64,000 bases of DNA from Candidatus Dormiibacterota bacterium. GTDB lineage: Bacteria; Chloroflexota; Dormibacteria; Aeolococcales; Aeolococcaceae. Location: the NCBI GenBank assembly GCA_963830305.1, contig CAWHLW010000005.1:2473-66472 (forward strand), written 5' to 3'. The notes under the pieces are model-generated. The model was given only the letters and a program-made list of their open reading frames with translations, was not told the origin of the DNA and made no database searches. Positions within the stretch are counted from its first letter, which is position 1; every line of letters begins with the position of its first letter. Position numbers and translations under genes: made by a program. Positions 1 through 45,786 of the stretch are shown here, one piece after another.

Positions 1-39
1 ATTCGCGACCACCAGAGCGGTGCGTGCCCGCCGGTTCAC
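1..39 (-). CDS. 5' end of a gene coupled to the type III PKS, possibly the membrane methyltransferase often found downstream of such PKSs; partial, runs off the window
   Basis: GTG at 39-37 overlaps the PKS stop codon (GTGA). It reads VNRRARTALVVAN. Only 13 codons are visible. Confidence 0.25.
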   Translation of the reverse strand, partial: MNRRARTALVVAN

Positions 40-1136
40 GACGCCCAGAGCAACTCGATGAGCTCGACGGTCAACCCGGGCCCGAACGCGGCGGCGAGGC
101 CACGACCATGTGTGGCCGGGAGGTCCGCCGCGAGTTCCTGAAGGACGAACAGGATCGCGGCCGACGAGGTGTTGCCGCTGGTGCGCATCACCCGCTGCGT
201 CGCGTCGACGTGCCCCGCACGCAGACCGAGCGACCGGATCACCGCATCCACGATCGCCTGACCGCCGGGATGCAGCGCGACGACGTCCAGTTCGGATGCC
301 GGACCGATGAAGTCGTCGACGAGGGCGGGGAGGTGGATCTCGAGCAGCCGCGGTAGCTGGCGCGACACCACCACCCGGAATCCGTCGTCGGCTTGCTCGA
401 AGCCGAGGGCTTCCGTGGTCGACGCCACCACCTGGTGACCAGTCCTGCCGATGCCCAGCTGTCCCGGGACCAATCCGGCACGCAGCACCGCGGCGCCGGC
501 CCCGTCGCCGAATACGAGCACGCTCAGGAGGTTGTCAGCGGACGTGTCGGCCGGGCGGAAGGTGAGCGACGGCACCTCCACCGCGACCACCAGCGCCGAT
601 TCCTCGGGATGCGAGCGCACCCAGTCGGAGGCCCAGGCCAGTGCCGCGGCACCGCCGGCACAGCCGAAGTTCATGAACGGCATGCGCCGGATATCGCGTC
701 GAAGACCGAGGTGATTGATCAAGGCCACATCGACGCCGGGCAGCACGAAGCCCGTGCACGAGGACACCACGACCAACCCGATGTCCGCGATCGCGACGCC
801 GGCATCGACGATCGCTCGCTCAGCCGCAGCGATGGCCAGCGGCGTCGCCTCGGCTGCGTACCGGGCCGCCTGCTCTCCGGGTGTCAGCGGTACGAGCGCG
901 TCCTCGATGGGCCGCACCAGGAAACGGTGGGTGCCGGAGAGCTCCTCGGTGAACAGGCTCACGCGCCGCTCCAGCCTCGGCCAGAGCTGGGTGATCAGGC
1001 GGAGGACCTCGTCGCCGGCGACCTCGTATGGCGGCACCGCGGTACCGAGCCCGTCGATCGTGACCGGCGCGAGCACGGGCCACCCGGCGCGGCGATCGGG
1101 CAGCGCCGCGGAGCGGATCGCCGCCTCAACAACCAT
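36..1136 (-). CDS. type III polyketide synthase (chalcone/stilbene synthase family)
   Basis: 366-aa ORF. Catalytic Cys context VVVSSCTGFVLPG, His in ALHPGG, Asn in SGNTSSA, and a C-terminal AFGPGLT motif. Confidence 0.9.
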   Translation of the reverse strand: MVVEAAIRSAALPDRRAGWPVLAPVTIDGLGTAVPPYEVAGDEVLRLITQLWPRLERRVSLFTEELSGTHRFLVRPIEDALVPLTPGEQAARYAAEATPLAIAAAERAIVDAGVAIADIGLVVVSSCTGFVLPGVDVALINHLGLRRDIRRMPFMNFGCAGGAAALAWASDWVRSHPEESALVVAVEVPSLTFRPADTSADNLLSVLVFGDGAGAAVLRAGLVPGQLGIGRTGHQVVASTTEALGFEQADDGFRVVVSRQLPRLLEIHLPALVDDFIGPASELDVVALHPGGQAIVDAVIRSLGLRAGHVDATQRVMRTSGNTSSAAILFVLQELAADLPATHGRGLAAAFGPGLTVELIELLWAS

Positions 1137-1228
1137 GCGCTCGGATCATGACACCGACGATCGGAGCGGCAGTGGCCCGTTGCGGTGAATTGGAGATGCG
1201 GAGAGTATGCCCCCGGGTTACAGGTGAC

Positions 1229-39464: not shown

Positions 39465-40907
39465 TCAGGCTTCGATATTGCTCATCACGTGCTTGATGCG
39501 CGTGTAGTCCTCGAACCCGTACATCGAGAGATCCTTGCCGTACCCCGAATGCTTGTAGCCCCCATGCGGCATTTCGGAGACCAGTGGTATGTGCGTGTTG
39601 ATCCAGACGCAGCCGAAGTCCAGCGCTCGGGCCATGCGCATGGCGCGGCCGTGGTCCTTCGTCCAGACGCTCGCGCTGAGGCCGTACTCGACGCCGTTCG
39701 CCCATTCGAGCGCCCTTGCCTCGTCGTCGAACCGCTGCACAGTGATCACCGGACCGAAGATCTCGCGCTGGATGAGATCGTCGTCCTGGCGCAGCCCGGC
39801 GATGACTGTCGCCTCGTGGAAATAGCCACGCTCGCCGACGCGATGCCCTCCCGCGACGACATCAGCGTGTGACGGCGCATTGCCGACGAGCTCGCGAACG
39901 CGATCGAGCTGCCTGGCGTTGTTGAGCGGTCCGAAGGCAACCTCATCGTCGTCCGGCGCGCCCGTCTTGTTGGTGGCGGCCTGCTCGGCGAGTGCGGCGA
40001 CCAGCTCGTCGTGGATCGACGCCGACGCGAGGACTCGAGTCGCCGCGGTGCAGTCCTGCCCGGCATTGAAGTAGCCGGCCATGGCCACAGCCTCGGCCGT
40101 GGATGCGACATCGGAATCATCGAAGACGATCACCGGCGCCTTGCCGCCCAGTTCGAGGTGAACCCGCTTGAGGTCACCGGCCGCAGCACGTGCGACCTCC
40201 ATCCCGGCGCGGACGCTCCCGGTGATCGATGCCATCGCCGGGATCTTGTGGGTCACCAGCGCGGCACCCGTGCTTGGATCGCCGCAGATGACGTTGAAGA
40301 CACCGGGTGGCAGGAACTCGGCCATGATCTCGGCCATGAGCAGCGTGGTCACCGGAGTCGTGTCGGATGGCTTGAGGACCACCGTGTTGCCGGCGGCGAT
40401 GGCGGGCGACCACTTCCAGACCGCCATCAGCATCGGGTAGTTCCACGGTGTGACCTGCGCGCAGACCCCCACGGGCTCGCGGCGGATCATCGAGGTATGG
40501 CCGGTCATGTATTCACCGGCGCTCTTGCCTTCAAGGATCCTCGCGCAACCGGCGAAGAAGCGCACCGGGTCGATCAGCTGGGGGATCTCCTCGCTGCGGG
40601 TGAGCGAGATCGGCTTGCCGGTGTTCTCGCATTCGAGCGCGACGAATTCCTCGGAGCGCTTCTCGAACGCGTCGGCAATGCGCAGCAGAGCGAGGCTCCG
40701 TTCTCTCGGTGTGGTGTCGCGCCAACCGGCGAATGCGCGCTGCGCAGCCTGGAGAGCGGCGTCGACGTCGGCCGGGCTCGACACCGGCGCCCGGGCGAAT
40801 TCCTCGCCGGTGGCCGGATTGATGAGCGGTGTCGAAGCGTCGGAGCTCGCCTCGCGATATTCACCGCCGACGAAGTTGCGCAAAGTGCGTACCGCGACCG
40901 TGCTCAT
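39465..40907 (-). CDS. aldehyde dehydrogenase (gamma-aminobutyraldehyde dehydrogenase-like)
   Basis: 480 aa. FVGGEY, VHLELGGKAP and GQDCTAATR (catalytic Cys). 4-nt overlap with the upstream aminotransferase. Confidence 0.9.
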   Translation of the reverse strand: MSTVAVRTLRNFVGGEYREASSDASTPLINPATGEEFARAPVSSPADVDAALQAAQRAFAGWRDTTPRERSLALLRIADAFEKRSEEFVALECENTGKPISLTRSEEIPQLIDPVRFFAGCARILEGKSAGEYMTGHTSMIRREPVGVCAQVTPWNYPMLMAVWKWSPAIAAGNTVVLKPSDTTPVTTLLMAEIMAEFLPPGVFNVICGDPSTGAALVTHKIPAMASITGSVRAGMEVARAAAGDLKRVHLELGGKAPVIVFDDSDVASTAEAVAMAGYFNAGQDCTAATRVLASASIHDELVAALAEQAATNKTGAPDDDEVAFGPLNNARQLDRVRELVGNAPSHADVVAGGHRVGERGYFHEATVIAGLRQDDDLIQREIFGPVITVQRFDDEARALEWANGVEYGLSASVWTKDHGRAMRMARALDFGCVWINTHIPLVSEMPHGGYKHSGYGKDLSMYGFEDYTRIKHVMSNIEA

Positions 40908-42275
40908 GCCTTGAGATCCCGCGCCAGCTCGCGGAAATTGGTGACGTACCGCTGCACGTCATCCGAAGAGTGCTGCACCGACAACGTCCAGTTCTCCTCC
41001 GCACCCGGCGCCATGAGGACGCCGCGGTTGGTCTGGTAGAGCCAGGAAACGTACGCAAGCGACTTGTCCATCGCGGCGTAGTCGCGGTAGTTGCGCACCG
41101 GCTCGTCGCGGTAGGTGACGCACCCGCGGGCCCCCATCGAGACGACGTGGAAGGGCAGGCTGTATTCGCTCATCACCTCGCGGAGGCCGCCACTCAGCTC
41201 CTCGGTCAGCGCGTCGAGATGGGAATAGGCCTGGCCGGTGAGCACCTCGAGCAGCGTGGCTCGTGATGCCGCGGTGGTCAGCGGGTTGCCGTTGAAGGTG
41301 CCGAGCTGTGCGACCTTGCCATCGCTGATGGTCGCCATGATGTCGGCACGACCACCGACTGCGCCGCATGGGAGGCCGCCGCCGATCGCCTTGGCAAGGC
41401 AGACGATGTCCGGAACGACGCCGAAGCGCTCGGTCGCCCCACCTGGAGCGATGGTCACGCCCGTCTTGACCTCGTCGAAGATGGCCACGGCGCCATGCCG
41501 GTGGGCGATTTCCACGACGCCGGCAAGGTAACCGTCGTCGGGCAGGACGAACCCGATGTTCATCATCGCCGGCTCGACGATCACACCCGCGACCTCGCCC
41601 GGATGCGCCACGAACGCGCGCTCGAGCGCGGGAAGGTCGTTGAATCCCACGACGGTGGTGAGCTCGACGGTCGATCGCGGGATGCCACCGGTCATGGGCA
41701 CCGAATTCGGGAAGTCGGCGTCGCCCATCGCATCCACGGGTGGTTCGACCGACACCAGCAGCGCGTCGTGGTGCCCGTGGTACGAGGCTTCGATCTTGAT
41801 GATCCGCTCGCGATCGGTGAAGCCGCGCGCCAGGCGGATCGCGTCGAGAGTTCGACTCGGTGCCGCTGTTGGTGAAGCGCCACTGGGGCTGATGGAAACG
41901 GCGCGCCAGCTCGCGGGCGACAACGATGTTCTCCGCGACGGGCTGGGCGAAGTGCGATCCGCGATGCATCTGCGCGTCCACCGCGGCCACGATCGCGGGA
42001 TGCGCGTGGCCCACCACCATGACGCCGAAGCCGTTGTGAAAGTCGACGTACTCGTTCCCGTCGACGTCCCAGACCTTGCTGCCCTGGCCGTGATCGATGA
42101 AGACCGGCTGCGGCGGTGTGTCCTGGAACGAGCTCGGCACACCGCGCGGGATGTACTCGGTCGCCTCCCTCCACAGGTCACGTGACCGGGTACGACGAGA
42201 CCGGAACTCGGCTTCCTCGCGAGCGGTCAGCGACGCGACCAGTTCCGAATCGATGTCACCCATGGTCAAGCCCAT
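40904..42275 (-). pseudogene. class III (PLP) aminotransferase, frameshifted as assembled
   Basis: The N-terminal 135 aa are in ORF 40959-42275 and end ...RFTNSGTES. The rest, (T)LDAIRLARGFTDRERIIKIEASYHGHHD...FDEVKTGV...LAKAIGGG, is in ORF 40904-42181, the +1 frame. The junction is at GAGTTC, 41848-41853 (sense GAGTCGAACTCTC). Confidence 0.85.
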
Positions 42276-42377: not shown

Positions 42378-42692
42378 TCAGCGCCAGTCCACCTGGGTGA
42401 CCTGACCGTCCACAACCTCGATGGTTCGGGCGGCGCATGAACCGGCGCCCAGGAGCGTCCAGTTCCCGGCAGCGAGGGACGGGAACAGCGCGACCGCAAG
42501 GAGTTCGCCTCGCATCGGCCGCGCGTGCACCCCGGTGTGGGTTCGGGCCCCGGGCCGCCCGTCAGGGCTGACCTCGATCTCGGAGTGGAGGAGCGCTGCC
42601 GGCACGATCACCAGCAGCGCTCCCGTCCCCCCACCGATATCGAGGACCGCCGGCTCGCTCGGAGCGGGACCGGCAGACTCGATCTCGCTCAA
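42378..42692 (-). CDS. hypothetical protein coupled to DUF4331
   Basis: 104 aa. 4-nt overlap with the DUF4331 stop. VLDIGGGTGALLVIVPAALLHSEIEVSP...HTGVHAR. No assignable family. Confidence 0.6.
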   Translation of the reverse strand: MSEIESAGPAPSEPAVLDIGGGTGALLVIVPAALLHSEIEVSPDGRPGARTHTGVHARPMRGELLAVALFPSLAAGNWTLLGAGSCAARTIEVVDGQVTQVDWR

Positions 42693-44068
42693 CTCGGGGT
42701 GTCGAATCCGTTGTGTGGCTGGCCCAGGTACGGGAAGTGGTCGATGTACCGGTTGCTGCCGGGCACCGAACCGCCGCTGAACTGGGCGGAGGAGAAGTCG
42801 CTGACCAGGCCGGCCGCGCCGTCAGCCTTGTAGCTGGGATCGACCAGTGGGATCGTTGCGCCCGCGACGGCGCGGATCTCGATGGTCGCCACGTCGTCGA
42901 ACACCCGGCGGCCGTTCGGGAACCCGGCGAGATCCCCGCCCAGGATGCCATTGATGCTCGGAGACTTTGCCGGAGGGATCGCCATGTTGAGGCGGAGCAG
43001 GTCGGCCGGGGTCGACCCGGTCGAGTTCTGGAAGCCCGCGATAACGCCCGAGGGCACGCCCGTGAGCAGGATCGCCTCGAGGTCGGCGCGCACCTTCGTG
43101 TAGGCGGACAGGTTCGGGAAGACGCCGGGGTAGAGCACCGGCAGCAATCCGGCGAGCATCGGATGGGCGTAGTCGGCCACGAACTGGGCGTCGTTGCTCG
43201 GCTTGGTCGAGTTCCAGAAGTCCTTCTTCCCGATCGGGATGATCACCTCGTTCACAAGCGGCATGCCGAGGCGCGACACCTGCACCCACGGTCCCACGTC
43301 GGTGGTGCGCCCGCCGTTGTCGAGGATGGTCGACTTGCGCCGGCTGGCCGTGGTGTACACGCCGATCACCGAATCGGCTTTGGTCGGGTCTGTGGGCATC
43401 TCGCCGTTCCTGGTGAGGTGCGTCTTGGGAACCTGGATCGCGATGGTGTGGACGTTCAGCGCCTTGGTGGAATCGACACCACCGACGGCGGGAAGCGGAA
43501 TCAGGTGCAGGTTCTGGAAGGGACGGAGCGCGCCGAGATCGAAGATCGACCCGAGGTCGACGTAGAAGCCCTCACGGCGCTGGCCTGCAAACACCCATCC
43601 ACCGTCCAGCGGATGGACCGCGGCACTCGCGAGCGCGCCGTAGTTCGGGGTCGAGCGGACGCCCACGTTCACCGGCGGACAGGCGAGCCGGCTCGCGAGC
43701 ACCTCGGACTTGCCGTGCCGGATCCGGGTCACCGAGTAGAACTGCCGGACGTTCCAGCTGGAGCTGGTCAGGCTGGTGATCGGACCCGTGTTGTAGAGAA
43801 AGGTAGTCGGGTCGGTGTACTCGGTGGTGAACTTGAACTGATAGGTGATCGCGTCCGCGACGCTGCCACCGTTGGTGACGGTGATCTCGTAAAGCACGTC
43901 GTCGCCGAAGTTGTAGAAGTTCGGGCCGCCGTCCGGTCCCTCCAGCGGGATGTAGTTGGCGATCAGCGTCACCGTCTCGGGATGATCGGGACTGGTGAAT
44001 GCGTAAAGGTCAGTGCTGTCAGCAACCGGGTCTTGCGAGATGCCGGGTGCTTCGCGATGCGAAGACAT
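42689..44068 (-). CDS. DUF4331 domain-containing protein
   Basis: 459 aa. Hallmark N-terminus MSSHREAPGISQDPVADSTDLYAFTSPD...IANYIPLEGPDGGPNFYNF. Confidence 0.85.
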   Translation of the reverse strand: MSSHREAPGISQDPVADSTDLYAFTSPDHPETVTLIANYIPLEGPDGGPNFYNFGDDVLYEITVTNGGSVADAITYQFKFTTEYTDPTTFLYNTGPITSLTSSSWNVRQFYSVTRIRHGKSEVLASRLACPPVNVGVRSTPNYGALASAAVHPLDGGWVFAGQRREGFYVDLGSIFDLGALRPFQNLHLIPLPAVGGVDSTKALNVHTIAIQVPKTHLTRNGEMPTDPTKADSVIGVYTTASRRKSTILDNGGRTTDVGPWVQVSRLGMPLVNEVIIPIGKKDFWNSTKPSNDAQFVADYAHPMLAGLLPVLYPGVFPNLSAYTKVRADLEAILLTGVPSGVIAGFQNSTGSTPADLLRLNMAIPPAKSPSINGILGGDLAGFPNGRRVFDDVATIEIRAVAGATIPLVDPSYKADGAAGLVSDFSSAQFSGGSVPGSNRYIDHFPYLGQPHNGFDTPS

Positions 44069-44109
44069 GTGTACCCCTCGTGAGGATGTGAATGATGTTG
44101 CGTTGCGTA

Positions 44110-44379
44110 TCAGCGCGTCGCGCGCTGAAGGCGCCGGATGAGCTGCGGGTCCTTGGTCACGACCTCGCGATGGCCCACCATTACGGAGATCTCGCCGGTC
44201 GCCGCGTCGCGAACGTACGCGGTCATCGGTTCGCTCGACAACGGACCGTCACTCGCGTCCGCGACGTTCTGGGCCGCCTCCACGAGGGTGCTCGGCCCGG
44301 CGATCAGCCCCATCGCCGCAACGCCGCCCGCTGCCCCCACCGTTGTGGACAGAAACGTCCGCCGTGTCACCTTGGCCAT
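44110..44379 (-). CDS. small Tat-signal protein (hypothetical)
   Basis: 89 aa. MAKVTRRTFLSTTVGAAGGVAAMGLIAG is a twin-arginine signal. The mature part is about 50 aa. Confidence 0.6.
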   Translation of the reverse strand: MAKVTRRTFLSTTVGAAGGVAAMGLIAGPSTLVEAAQNVADASDGPLSSEPMTAYVRDAATGEISVMVGHREVVTKDPQLIRRLQRATR

Positions 44380-44519
44380 GTGTACACCTCTCTGGGGCGG
44401 TCGTTGGCGATCCGGTTGGCCGTCTTGTCACCGCCCAGTCACCGCTTGGTACGGACGGCTCCGGGCGACGGATCACTCTTGCGCCGGACCGGCACGTCAC
44501 CGGTCGAGAGGAGGGAGGC

Positions 44520-45197
44520 TCAGGTCCAGGACGCGGGAACCTGCACCTCGACGTTGTCCTTGTTGACACGCGTCGCGATCGCCGGCAAGGGGTTCAGGCG
44601 GTAGTCGCCCGGATTGGCGGCCCCGGTGAGGTTGAAGCTCATCGGATGGCACGGACACACGAGCTTGTTCTGCCCGGCTTCCGGGATCAGCGTGCATCCC
44701 TGGTGGGTGCAGACCGCGCTGAGACCGCGGATCTTGCCGTCGAGGGTGAAGACGACGCCCTGGATGCCCCCGGCGGAGAACTGCTTGATCTTGCCCGGGG
44801 TCACCTCGTCAAGCGTCGCGACTGCCACCCATGTGCTGATGTACGGCTGAATCGTGCCGCTGCCGCTGGCGGGTTCCGTGAGCGCCTCACGGAGGCCCTC
44901 GAGACCGACACCGGCCGCGACGGACGCCGCGACGGTCGCGAGGCCGCCGACGAGGAACCGGCGCCGGCGGATTCCCGTCTCCGCCCATCCCGGGTCCTGT
45001 CCGGGCGCCTCGCGCAGCTGCCGGGCGAGGTTGTCGACGAACGCGGGCGACGGCGTGGATCCGCCCGGGTGCCCTGCCCGAAGCCGTGCAGCGACCTGCA
45101 TGGTGGCGGAGTCGTCGCCCGCAGGCGACCGCGGCGGGCGCCGGTTGGCGATCAGTGCGTTGATGAAACGCGTGAGGCGGCGATCAGCCTTCGACAT
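44520..45197 (-). CDS. Rieske [2Fe-2S] domain protein with cytoplasmic N-terminal extension and RRRRF-TM segment (candidate anti-sigma/sensor)
   Basis: 225 aa. CTHQGC and CPCH cluster ligands. GIRRRRFLVGGLATVAASVAAGVG lies about 80 residues from the N-terminus. The gene overlaps the ECF sigma gene by 14 nt. Confidence 0.8.
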   Translation of the reverse strand: MSKADRRLTRFINALIANRRPPRSPAGDDSATMQVAARLRAGHPGGSTPSPAFVDNLARQLREAPGQDPGWAETGIRRRRFLVGGLATVAASVAAGVGLEGLREALTEPASGSGTIQPYISTWVAVATLDEVTPGKIKQFSAGGIQGVVFTLDGKIRGLSAVCTHQGCTLIPEAGQNKLVCPCHPMSFNLTGAANPGDYRLNPLPAIATRVNKDNVEVQVPASWT

Positions 45198-45714
45198 AGC
45201 GTGCTCCCGTGGTGGCAGCGCGGCGCAGCGCCCGCAGTTGCAGCACCTTGGCGTTGGCGACGCTCACGCCCATCGCAGCGGCTGTCTCCCGGATGGAGTA
45301 CCCACGAAGGAATCGGAACTCGAGCACGCTTCGGTAATTGTCAGGCAGCCCGTCGAGGATCGGGCTGACATCCACGTCGCGCTGCTGCTCGACTTCCGGG
45401 GAGGCGTCGCGCTGCTCGTCGAACTCCATCAGGACCGTTCCGTGACGCTGTCGCCAGACATCGGCGAGCACGCTCCGCGCCGTGGTGCGCAGGTAGGCGC
45501 CGATCTCCGCCGAGGTGACGTCGGAGCGCAACCGCGGCAGGGCACGGAGGAAGGTCGTGGAAGTGACGTCCTCGGCGTCCGGGGTGTTGCCGGTTCTCGA
45601 GTAGACGTATCGATAGAGAGGAGCCACGTGCTCCTGATAGAGGGACTCCCAGTCGTTCTGGCGATCTGGGGTGCCGACCACGCGAAGCGGGGGCGGCGAT
45701 TCGGGCACAGCCAC
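45184..45714 (-). CDS. ECF-type RNA polymerase sigma-70 family factor
   Basis: 176 aa. Region 2 (LYQEHVAPLYRYVYSRTG) and region 4 HTH (LPDNYRSVLEFRFLRGYSIRETAAAMGVSVANAKVLQLRALRR). Confidence 0.85.
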   Translation of the reverse strand: MAVPESPPPLRVVGTPDRQNDWESLYQEHVAPLYRYVYSRTGNTPDAEDVTSTTFLRALPRLRSDVTSAEIGAYLRTTARSVLADVWRQRHGTVLMEFDEQRDASPEVEQQRDVDVSPILDGLPDNYRSVLEFRFLRGYSIRETAAAMGVSVANAKVLQLRALRRAATTGARYVEG

Positions 45715-45786
45715 GTTCGATCATGTTCTACGCCACTGAGTTACGCAATCGGCCGCAGCGGTCATGATTGACGGAGAGGGTTTGCC

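Follow-up and report, generated by a model that had tools for sequence, protein, structure and literature searches.

A Rieske [2Fe-2S] membrane protein as probable anti-sigma factor beside a DUF4331 cassette in Candidatus Dormiibacterota

Pairs of extracytoplasmic function (ECF) sigma and anti-sigma factors are among the commonest signalling devices of bacteria, and for most of their groups the sensed signal is unknown. In a stretch of 64,000 nucleotides (nt) from a Candidatus Dormiibacterota bacterium (assembly GCA_963830305.1, contig CAWHLW010000005.1), called the window here, a gene for an ECF sigma factor is followed by a gene for a membrane protein with a Rieske [2Fe-2S] domain, and then by three further genes, the middle one encoding a DUF4331 protein. 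The first-pass annotation of this DNA had described the five genes as co-directional, with overlaps of 14 nt and 4 nt, and the open reading frame (ORF) calls on the minus strand reproduce this. What is a Rieske protein doing in the place usually held by an anti-sigma factor, and does the whole row of genes belong to one system? Our answer, drawn from gene neighbourhoods and domain architecture, is that the adjacent ECF sigma very probably has its cognate anti-sigma factor in the Rieske protein, and that the locus as a whole is likely to consist of a sigma/anti-sigma module lying beside a separate DUF4331 cassette. The features of the first module are the following, with proteins numbered in amino acids (aa):

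45184-45714, minus strand: sigma gene, 176 aa, GTG start; ECF (group 4) sigma factor
44520-45197, minus strand: Rieske protein gene, 225 aa
45000-45197, minus strand: ND, the N-terminal domain of the Rieske protein (aa 1-66); cytoplasmic, three helices, proposed sigma-binding domain
44898-44972, minus strand: twin-arginine motif IRRRRFLVG and hydrophobic span (aa 76-100), predicted uncleaved signal-anchor for twin-arginine translocation (Tat)
44523-44861, minus strand: bc/b6f-type Rieske [2Fe-2S] domain (aa 113-225), predicted extracytoplasmic

We took as ECF (group 4) factors those proteins of ~170-200 aa that have sigma2 and sigma4 domains only. Judged by its domain matches, the window sigma is a sigma-70 factor of this group: within its 176 aa, Pfam finds Sigma70_r2 (aa 25-90) and r4_2 (aa 120-165), and the ECF superfamily model TIGR02937 of NCBIfam gives 59.3 bits against a cut-off of 42.9. 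The second-best NCBIfam match is the BldN family (TIGR02952, E 5e-19), at 68.7 bits against an equivalog cut-off of 206, and membership of the BldN equivalog was ruled out on this score. In PDB searches, the nearest solved relative of the sigma factor is the sigma2 domain of BldN (6dxo_A, E 1.7e-15), and its sigma4 domain matches that of SigD (E 5e-4).

The genes found next to ND give an indication of what the Rieske protein does. Metagenome contigs were scanned with a degenerate DNA pattern, composed by hand, of a stretch internal to ND; the search pattern is confined to this domain, and an adjacent sigma gene therefore constitutes independent evidence. ND is encoded by 54 of the 60 matches, and the scan matches combined with previously fetched loci gave a set of 66 loci, or 42 clusters at 90 % identity. 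In 63 of these loci (39 of the clusters) an ECF sigma ORF ends at the start of the ND gene. The two genes overlap by 4 nt in 49 loci and by 14 nt in four Dormiibacterota loci including the window (45184-45197), and a 4-nt translational coupling is classically found between sigma and anti-sigma genes. Three loci are exceptions to the sigma-ND order: one contig breaks off 15 nt upstream, one match proved to be a sigma-like-ND fusion and not an ND-Rieske gene, and in locus L124 an ND-Rieske gene without an upstream sigma gene is directly preceded by the sequence motif described below (at 792), ND starting ~40 nt downstream. The sigma-Rieske pair is kept down to 38 % identity even though the downstream genes differ. 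A separate contig scan, which had locked onto the Rieske cluster motif, mainly gave Rieske genes of a generic kind, and ND was found there only in Dormiibacterota loci and in L002. The first-pass annotation had placed the Rieske protein in the anti-sigma position and assigned it an anti-sigma topology, and a conserved ND encoded nearly always right after an ECF sigma gene agrees well with that proposal.

ND itself is, from its profile and architectures, a distinct, conserved and modular family. Among 1.84 billion representative proteins, its profile has 412 matches at E<=1e-3 and 89 at E<=1e-10, nearly always N-terminal, with protein lengths of about 215-240 aa. Aligned to distant homologues (38-54 % identity), it shows the pattern xRRVxRFVDALLxxRRPxRFxA..E..ALRxAxxLRAARPGAxxPxPxFVxxLxRRL, and an AlphaFold2 (AF2) model built on an alignment of 51 sequences places helices at 3-16, 29-40 and 51-66 with proline-rich linkers between them. 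Its usual partner is a Rieske domain: the Rieske motif is intact in 41 non-truncated ND matches, and in several others the Rieske domain is frameshifted or has a ligand replaced. Four ND representatives are joined to an unrelated, non-Rieske C-terminal domain, which weakly matches two NCBIfam models ('anti-sigma factor' NF052375 and 'putative anti-sigmaE' PRK13920) without reaching the cut-off of either. One non-Rieske variant shows the same coupling to a sigma gene. Most non-Rieske variants lack a strict twin arginine (RR), which fits a use of the Tat system tied to the cofactor domain.

ND is also found at the other end of a different protein. A sigma-like protein of ~250 aa with a C-terminal ND is encoded immediately ahead of the sigma gene in 15 loci (at position -2 in L089, L094, L099, L113, L128, L131, L137, L145 and L148). 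The ND match in these fusions has E-values from 1e-9 to 1e-5 and covers positions 4-67 of the hidden Markov model (HMM); region 2 of the sigma-like part is degenerate and region 4 (the sigma4 domain) is clear. The family has at least 252 members; the window contains no such fusion gene. AF2 models one fusion as a single compact unit (mean predicted local distance difference test, pLDDT, 83; predicted template modelling score, pTM, 0.79), with confident ND helices at 182-196, 211-225 and 232-252, and Foldseek retrieves only ECF sigma folds for it, with weak E-values. Such an occurrence, in fusion with a sigma-like protein or directly behind a sigma gene, would be expected of a sigma-binding module, and we infer that ND is a compact, portable module of this kind, unnamed in current domain libraries. 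It is because of the coupling in 39 of 42 clusters, the presence of ND on a non-Rieske domain and its fusion to sigma-like proteins that an anti-sigma role of the Rieske protein seems so probable to us.

It could be argued instead that the protein is exported for ordinary electron transfer and is a target, not a regulator, of the sigma factor, ND being a lengthened n-region of the Tat signal that serves, for instance, as a dock for a proofreading chaperone. The Rieske half of the protein would suit such a role, as its ligands and disulfide are intact and the domain is confidently modelled. It matches PF00355 in Pfam (aa 122-194, E 1e-13) and holds CTHQGC at aa 163-168 and CPCH at aa 181-184; the cluster ligands C163, H165, C181 and H184 and the disulfide pair C168/C183 are conserved in the family, and by ligand and disulfide criteria the sequence qualifies as a bc-type Rieske domain. 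Its pLDDT exceeds 95, and the top Foldseek matches are the Chlorobaculum Rieske domain 8hn2 and PetC3 (5cxm), with Rieske ferredoxins also present; a Foldseek search with the full model of the protein found Rieske folds only. Upstream of the domain, RRRRF (aa 77-81) is followed by a hydrophobic stretch of 19 residues, to be compared with the Tat motif S/T-R-R-x-F-L-K and its hydrophobic region, and a predicted helix spans 79-106. The Tat model TIGR01409 gives 21.5 bits for the homologue P0080 (cut-off 16.7). In the 51-sequence family alignment R78 and R79 are invariant, as are T164, C168, P182 and C183, which indicates that the twin arginines and the disulfide are under selection. The RRRRF motif, the hydrophobic span and the CTHQGC...CPCH signature noted in the first pass are thus all present in the protein, and so is the reported lack of a zf-HC2 motif: residues 1-75 contain neither a cysteine nor HxxxCxxC. 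A class I anti-sigma domain (zf-HC2/ZAS, PF13490) was discarded on these grounds and on the absence of a Pfam match at E<=10.

Two further observations could be quoted in favor of plain electron transfer, namely that ND is unlike known anti-sigma domains and that other lineages have a second, ordinary Tat-Rieske gene with the same upstream motif. They have to be set against the occurrence of ND on non-Rieske proteins, mostly without strict RR, and at the C-terminal end of sigma-like proteins, which are cytoplasmic and not exported. The 4-nt coupling to a sigma gene in 49 loci also speaks against this role, as does the lack of cytochrome b or another redox partner among the recurring neighbors. 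On balance, we consider it quite improbable that the Rieske protein is only an exported electron carrier with an extended Tat signal. The narrower possibility that its relatives are respiratory subunits (QcrA/PetC), which the first pass had named as a reason to give up the anti-sigma proposal, was rejected: NCBIfam equivalog scores are far below cut-off (35.6 vs 154, 32.4 vs 250 and 26.5 vs 275 bits), and no cytochrome b gene occurs among the recurrent neighbor clusters of the ND loci, singleton neighbors having been annotated in part.

If the Rieske protein restrains the sigma factor, one may ask from where the free sigma would act. The first pass had proposed a search for ECF-type promoters upstream of the sigma gene and of the gene that starts at 44379. 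A conserved motif does lie upstream of 45714, and the same motif is absent upstream of 44379. The feature is:

45725-45745, minus strand: bipartite element CGTAAC-N7-CGTAGAAC, candidate autoregulated promoter, ending 10 nt before the sigma GTG

In the window this element reads CGTAACTCAGTGGCGTAGAAC (45745-45725). GCGTAAC is invariant across the six Dormiibacterota loci compared, and 52 non-redundant instances give the consensus YGTAAC-N7-CGTAtCT, in which positions beyond the search pattern are also conserved. The element occupies a fixed position before the sigma gene in almost every ND locus, unrelated loci included (among others L089, L094, L110, L117, L128 and L131). The genes it precedes in other lineages further include the sigma-like-ND fusion, those that come right after ND, and Lipoprotein_15. 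The start codon often lies only 9-11 nt after the middle block (CGTAtCT). Across the 64-kb window, two regular-expression matches were observed where 0.13 were expected, and it is positional conservation, not score, that identifies the site upstream of the sigma gene. The other match, TGTAACCCGGGGGCATACTCT (1202-1222, minus strand), lies in the right orientation upstream of an ORF at 36-1136 (minus strand), in a gap between ORFs that by eye resemble a short-chain dehydrogenase and a type III polyketide synthase; its position weight matrix (PWM) score of 13.7 is reached by 7 of 20 shuffles.

Promoter elements of BldN have the form CGTAAC-N16-CGTTGA (PMC2375139), and those of ShbA and SigD are CGTAAC-N16-CGATGA and GTAAC-N17-18-CGAT, respectively (PMC12019637). 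The two halves of the element match the -35 and -10 boxes of these promoters, whereas the spacer is 7 nt instead of 16-18. Read literally, the 7-nt geometry would imply transcripts with almost no leader and a contact of the -35 kind near -25. An additional, third CGT/CGA block is enriched at 19-20 nt past GTAAC, being present in 32 of 52 instances, but it was rejected as a general -10 because many start codons, at 9-11 nt after the middle block, are too near to that block. GGAAC-N17-CGTC upstream of the sigma gene was likewise dismissed as a promoter, since it overlaps the start of a divergent hydrolase gene and is not conserved. Generic promoter and terminator scans of the region found nothing.

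A number of results weigh against an autoregulated sigma factor held by a Rieske anti-sigma. ND has no Pfam match even at E<=10, and its profile, searched at E<=10 against all PDB chains (6DXO included), finds no anti-sigma domain, so the match to a known anti-sigma domain that the first pass had suggested looking for did not materialize. Comparison of the ND profile by hhalign with residues 1-80 of RsdA (sequence from PDB 3VEP) gave a probability of 0.1, on which homology to RsdA was discarded, and the window protein's NF052375 'antisigma' match is a weak one (E 0.004) that its homologues do not consistently share. In the monomer model, ND is predicted with moderate confidence (pLDDT 54-78). 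The Tat HMM match of the window protein is weak and below threshold. As for the promoter, a PWM trained on other lineages scores the window sites within the range of shuffled sequences, and to our knowledge a 7-nt spacer is not used by any ECF or sigma-70-family holoenzyme. Finally, ND-Rieske members with substituted ligands exist (CTD..CPCH, CTH..CPCG, CTH..CPCR; P0097, P0127, P0132, P0194). They may bind an altered cluster or none, and regulation may for this reason not depend on the chemistry of the cluster.

With these points in mind, the following mechanism can be proposed for the sigma/Rieske module, and as a whole we consider it likely. The two genes are translationally coupled, and ND (aa 1-66) would bind the sigma factor and hold it at the membrane. 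Going by the motif and by what is established for Rieske proteins, the twin-arginine signal-anchor would direct Tat export of a Rieske domain already folded around its [2Fe-2S] cluster. A change in the oxidation state of the cluster, its damage or loss, or a failure of its assembly or export might then inactivate or destabilize the anti-sigma factor, and the freed sigma would transcribe its own operon, and probably other targets, from the CGTAAC...CGTAGAAC element. The DUF4331 cassette simply lies downstream of this module in Dormiibacterota, with control by the sigma factor possible. The neighbors found in other lineages (Lipoprotein_15, cupredoxin, Tat-Metallophos, a second Tat-Rieske protein) suggest that the signal may concern extracytoplasmic redox or metal-cofactor proteins. 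We advance only tentatively the broader idea that this is a new class of ECF anti-sigma factors, with a Tat-exported Rieske sensor of redox or cofactor integrity, a new three-helix domain, and promoters with BldN-like boxes spaced by 7 bp.

The same anti-sigma factor could, alternatively, sense from the cytoplasmic side. Failure of Fe-S assembly or of Tat export, brought about by iron limitation or by oxidative or copper damage, would leave an apo-protein to be degraded and release the sigma. Reporting cofactor supply and export competence in this way is as economical an explanation as extracytoplasmic sensing. Rieske proteins acquire their cluster before Tat transport, as this scheme would need; moreover, RR is invariant only in the Rieske-type members, and the neighbors in other lineages are further Tat- or cofactor-dependent exported proteins. 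The existence of ligand-substituted members argues in the opposite direction, and sequence does not separate cytoplasmic from extracytoplasmic sensing. We would rate this version of the anti-sigma mechanism as unlikely, yet ahead of simple electron transfer.

The second part of the question, whether the sigma/Rieske module also governs the genes behind it, concerns the following features:

44380-44477, minus strand: non-coding block of ~100 nt upstream of the 89-aa gene, near-invariant within Dormiibacterota loci
44110-44379, minus strand: gene of an 89-aa protein with a TAT_signal_seq match
42689-44068, minus strand: DUF4331 gene, 459 aa
42378-42692, minus strand: gene of a 104-aa protein, TTG start, family unassigned

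The DUF4331 protein matches PF14224 over its full length (449 bits against a gathering threshold of 27, E 2e-134), sequence search found no solved relative, and its gene overlaps that of the 104-aa protein by 4 nt (42689-42692). For the latter, searches of Pfam, NCBIfam and PDB gave no match; in L003, L149 and L152 the gene behind DUF4331 encodes 104-117 aa. The 89-aa protein scores 20.3 bits against TAT_signal_seq (TIGR01409, cut-off 16.7), and its gene is always directly upstream of the DUF4331 gene, including in loci without sigma or Rieske genes. The DUF4331 N-terminus, MSSHREAP, is identical in three cassettes (64 % overall identity), none of which has a signal peptide on this protein. 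A signal-less DUF4331 protein with a small partner that bears a Tat signal suggests passenger export, and the small protein probably carries DUF4331 out in this way. Passenger export is a known mode of the Tat system (PMC10924467).

Could all five genes form one sigma-controlled operon with the DUF4331 cassette as its output? In Dormiibacterota they are adjacent and co-directional, and the same order recurs in related contigs at 45-96 % protein identity, a recurrence which makes a chance arrangement untenable. Soil, peat and permafrost metagenomes, together with metagenome-assembled genomes (MAGs) labelled Candidatus Dormiibacterota, are the source of Rieske protein homologues with 70-96 % identity, and the neighborhood of these is syntenic. 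No terminator-like site was found in the region. However, the cassette also stands alone elsewhere: homologues of the 89-aa protein (45-52 % identity) precede DUF4331 and a small gene in contigs with no sigma or Rieske gene nearby. Among these stand-alone cassettes (L151, 4372-4866; L152, 4154-4816), one has a divergent FUR-like regulator as its neighbor and another a haem-oxygenase-like/TENA gene. These neighbors hint, from gene order, at a link of the cassette with iron or another metal. Conversely, the cassette is missing from the 36 other ND clusters; outside Dormiibacterota, the genes after the pair are cupredoxin and Metallophos, a second Tat-Rieske and Lipoprotein_15, or a membrane protein without a Pfam match.

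The 140-nt gap between the Rieske stop and the 89-aa gene also argues against a single operon, since it lacks a YGTAAC-N7-CGTA element and contains a conserved block of its own. Sequence varies over the ~40 nt that follow the stop. The block at 44380-44477 has no Rfam match and no terminator, and it is not conserved upstream of the cassette in L149, L151 and L152. Metatranscriptome contigs from peat and permafrost (about 90-95 % identity, four runs) cover the DUF4331 and 89-aa genes (42830-44340), and none of the metatranscriptome contigs crosses 44342-44593; transcripts of the sigma and Rieske genes came from one run only, at low depth. These contigs yield no transcription start sites. Hence the locus is composed of two modules, sigma/Rieske (45714-44520) and the DUF4331 cassette (44379-42378). 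The single module implied by the first-pass annotation is not supported as a conserved unit, as the trio of 89-aa, DUF4331 and 104-aa genes occurs without sigma or Rieske and other genes follow the pair outside Dormiibacterota. What remains of its neighborhood proposal is a sigma-Rieske pair conserved across lineages and a five-gene row conserved in Dormiibacterota. A five-gene operon with the cassette as output is doubtful in our opinion, and control of the cassette by the sigma factor is a possibility to which we give equally limited weight.

Some additional observations concern the surroundings of these genes. In one lineage (L091, L094, L113, L123, L125, L131 and L138), a second Tat-Rieske gene (~180 aa, no ND) and then a Lipoprotein_15 (PF03640) gene occupy positions +1 and +2, the motif standing in front of the Lipoprotein_15 gene. 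Downstream of the cassette in the window, a class-III aminotransferase gene (40907-42275, minus strand) is split between two frames, with the break near 41850; residues 1-142 and 142-456 of an intact homologue from L003 align to different frames, and either a frameshift or an assembly error would account for this. Proteins 87-96 % identical to the Dormiibacterota 89-aa protein carry MAG labels such as Saccharimonadales and Acidoferrales, and Candidatus Angelobacter is the label of one ND-Rieske protein (P0253, P0286 and P0441 are among these proteins). For the MAGs concerned, such taxonomic labels look unreliable.

How does the sigma/Rieske pair compare with known systems? Control of sigma release by a redox-active cofactor on the anti-sigma factor is established for the zinc-thiol proteins RsrA, RshA and ChrR (ZAS) and for the [2Fe-2S] protein RsmA of Streptomyces. 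The ZAS anti-sigmas and RsmA are cytoplasmic sensors, and RsmA is a kinase-like protein of the SpoIIAB type paired with a group 3 sigma. In contrast, the cofactor domain of the window protein is predicted to lie outside the membrane after Tat export, and HxxxCxxC is lacking. With the Rieske proteins of cytochrome bc1/b6f and those of the PetC3 type, the window protein shares fold, ligands and disulfide, and it has like them a predicted N-terminal Tat signal-anchor; it differs from them by a conserved cytoplasmic domain of 75 residues before RR and by the coupling of its gene to a sigma gene.

RsbN, the anti-sigma factor of BldN in Streptomyces venezuelae, is a single-pass membrane protein of 412 aa without a zinc motif, and its cytoplasmic part of 91 residues forms three helices with flexible, proline-containing linkers (PMC6101532). 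Characteristic of the RsbN type (PDB 6DXO) is a helix 3 clamped between sigma2 and sigma4, with helices 1-2 on sigma4. The authors saw in RsbN a new class of structure, confined to Streptomyces (PMC6101532). The window pair resembles RsbN-BldN in that its sigma is nearest to BldN among solved structures, in that ND is predicted as three helices with proline-rich linkers followed by a single membrane helix (79-106), and in that the -35-like half CGTAAC is identical to the BldN -35. However, ND has no detectable sequence similarity to RsbN, the extracytoplasmic part of RsbN is different, and the spacer of the window motif is 7 nt where that of BldN is 16 nt. RsdA, which acts on sigma D (ECF40) of Mycobacterium tuberculosis (3VEP), is likewise a zinc-free single-pass anti-sigma factor with a helical N-terminal domain that binds sigma4, and SigD and ShbA promoters also have GTAAC as -35, but RsdA has no Fe-S domain and its alignment to ND by hhalign was negative. 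By analogy, ND may work like a zinc-free anti-sigma domain of the RsbN or RsdA type, the likeness being one of architecture and not of family membership.

The first-pass annotation had not been able to match this arrangement to a characterized system, and the literature offers no counterpart either: no description of a Rieske-type or Tat-exported anti-sigma factor was found in the searchable literature, a scope outside which the ECF Hub group annotations lie, and no paper there mentions the DUF4331 family. An Fe-S domain on the outer side of an anti-sigma factor would, if true, link gene regulation to envelope redox chemistry or to Fe-S/Tat maturation. It would supply a testable sensor in Dormiibacterota, an abundant soil phylum, and the related sequences that were retrieved all come from metagenomes or MAGs. 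The 7-nt-spaced motif, if it is a real promoter, would challenge the standard spacing rule of sigma-70-type promoters. As for DUF4331, a large family whose function is unknown, its association with a small Tat-signal protein offers passenger export as a first definite hypothesis.

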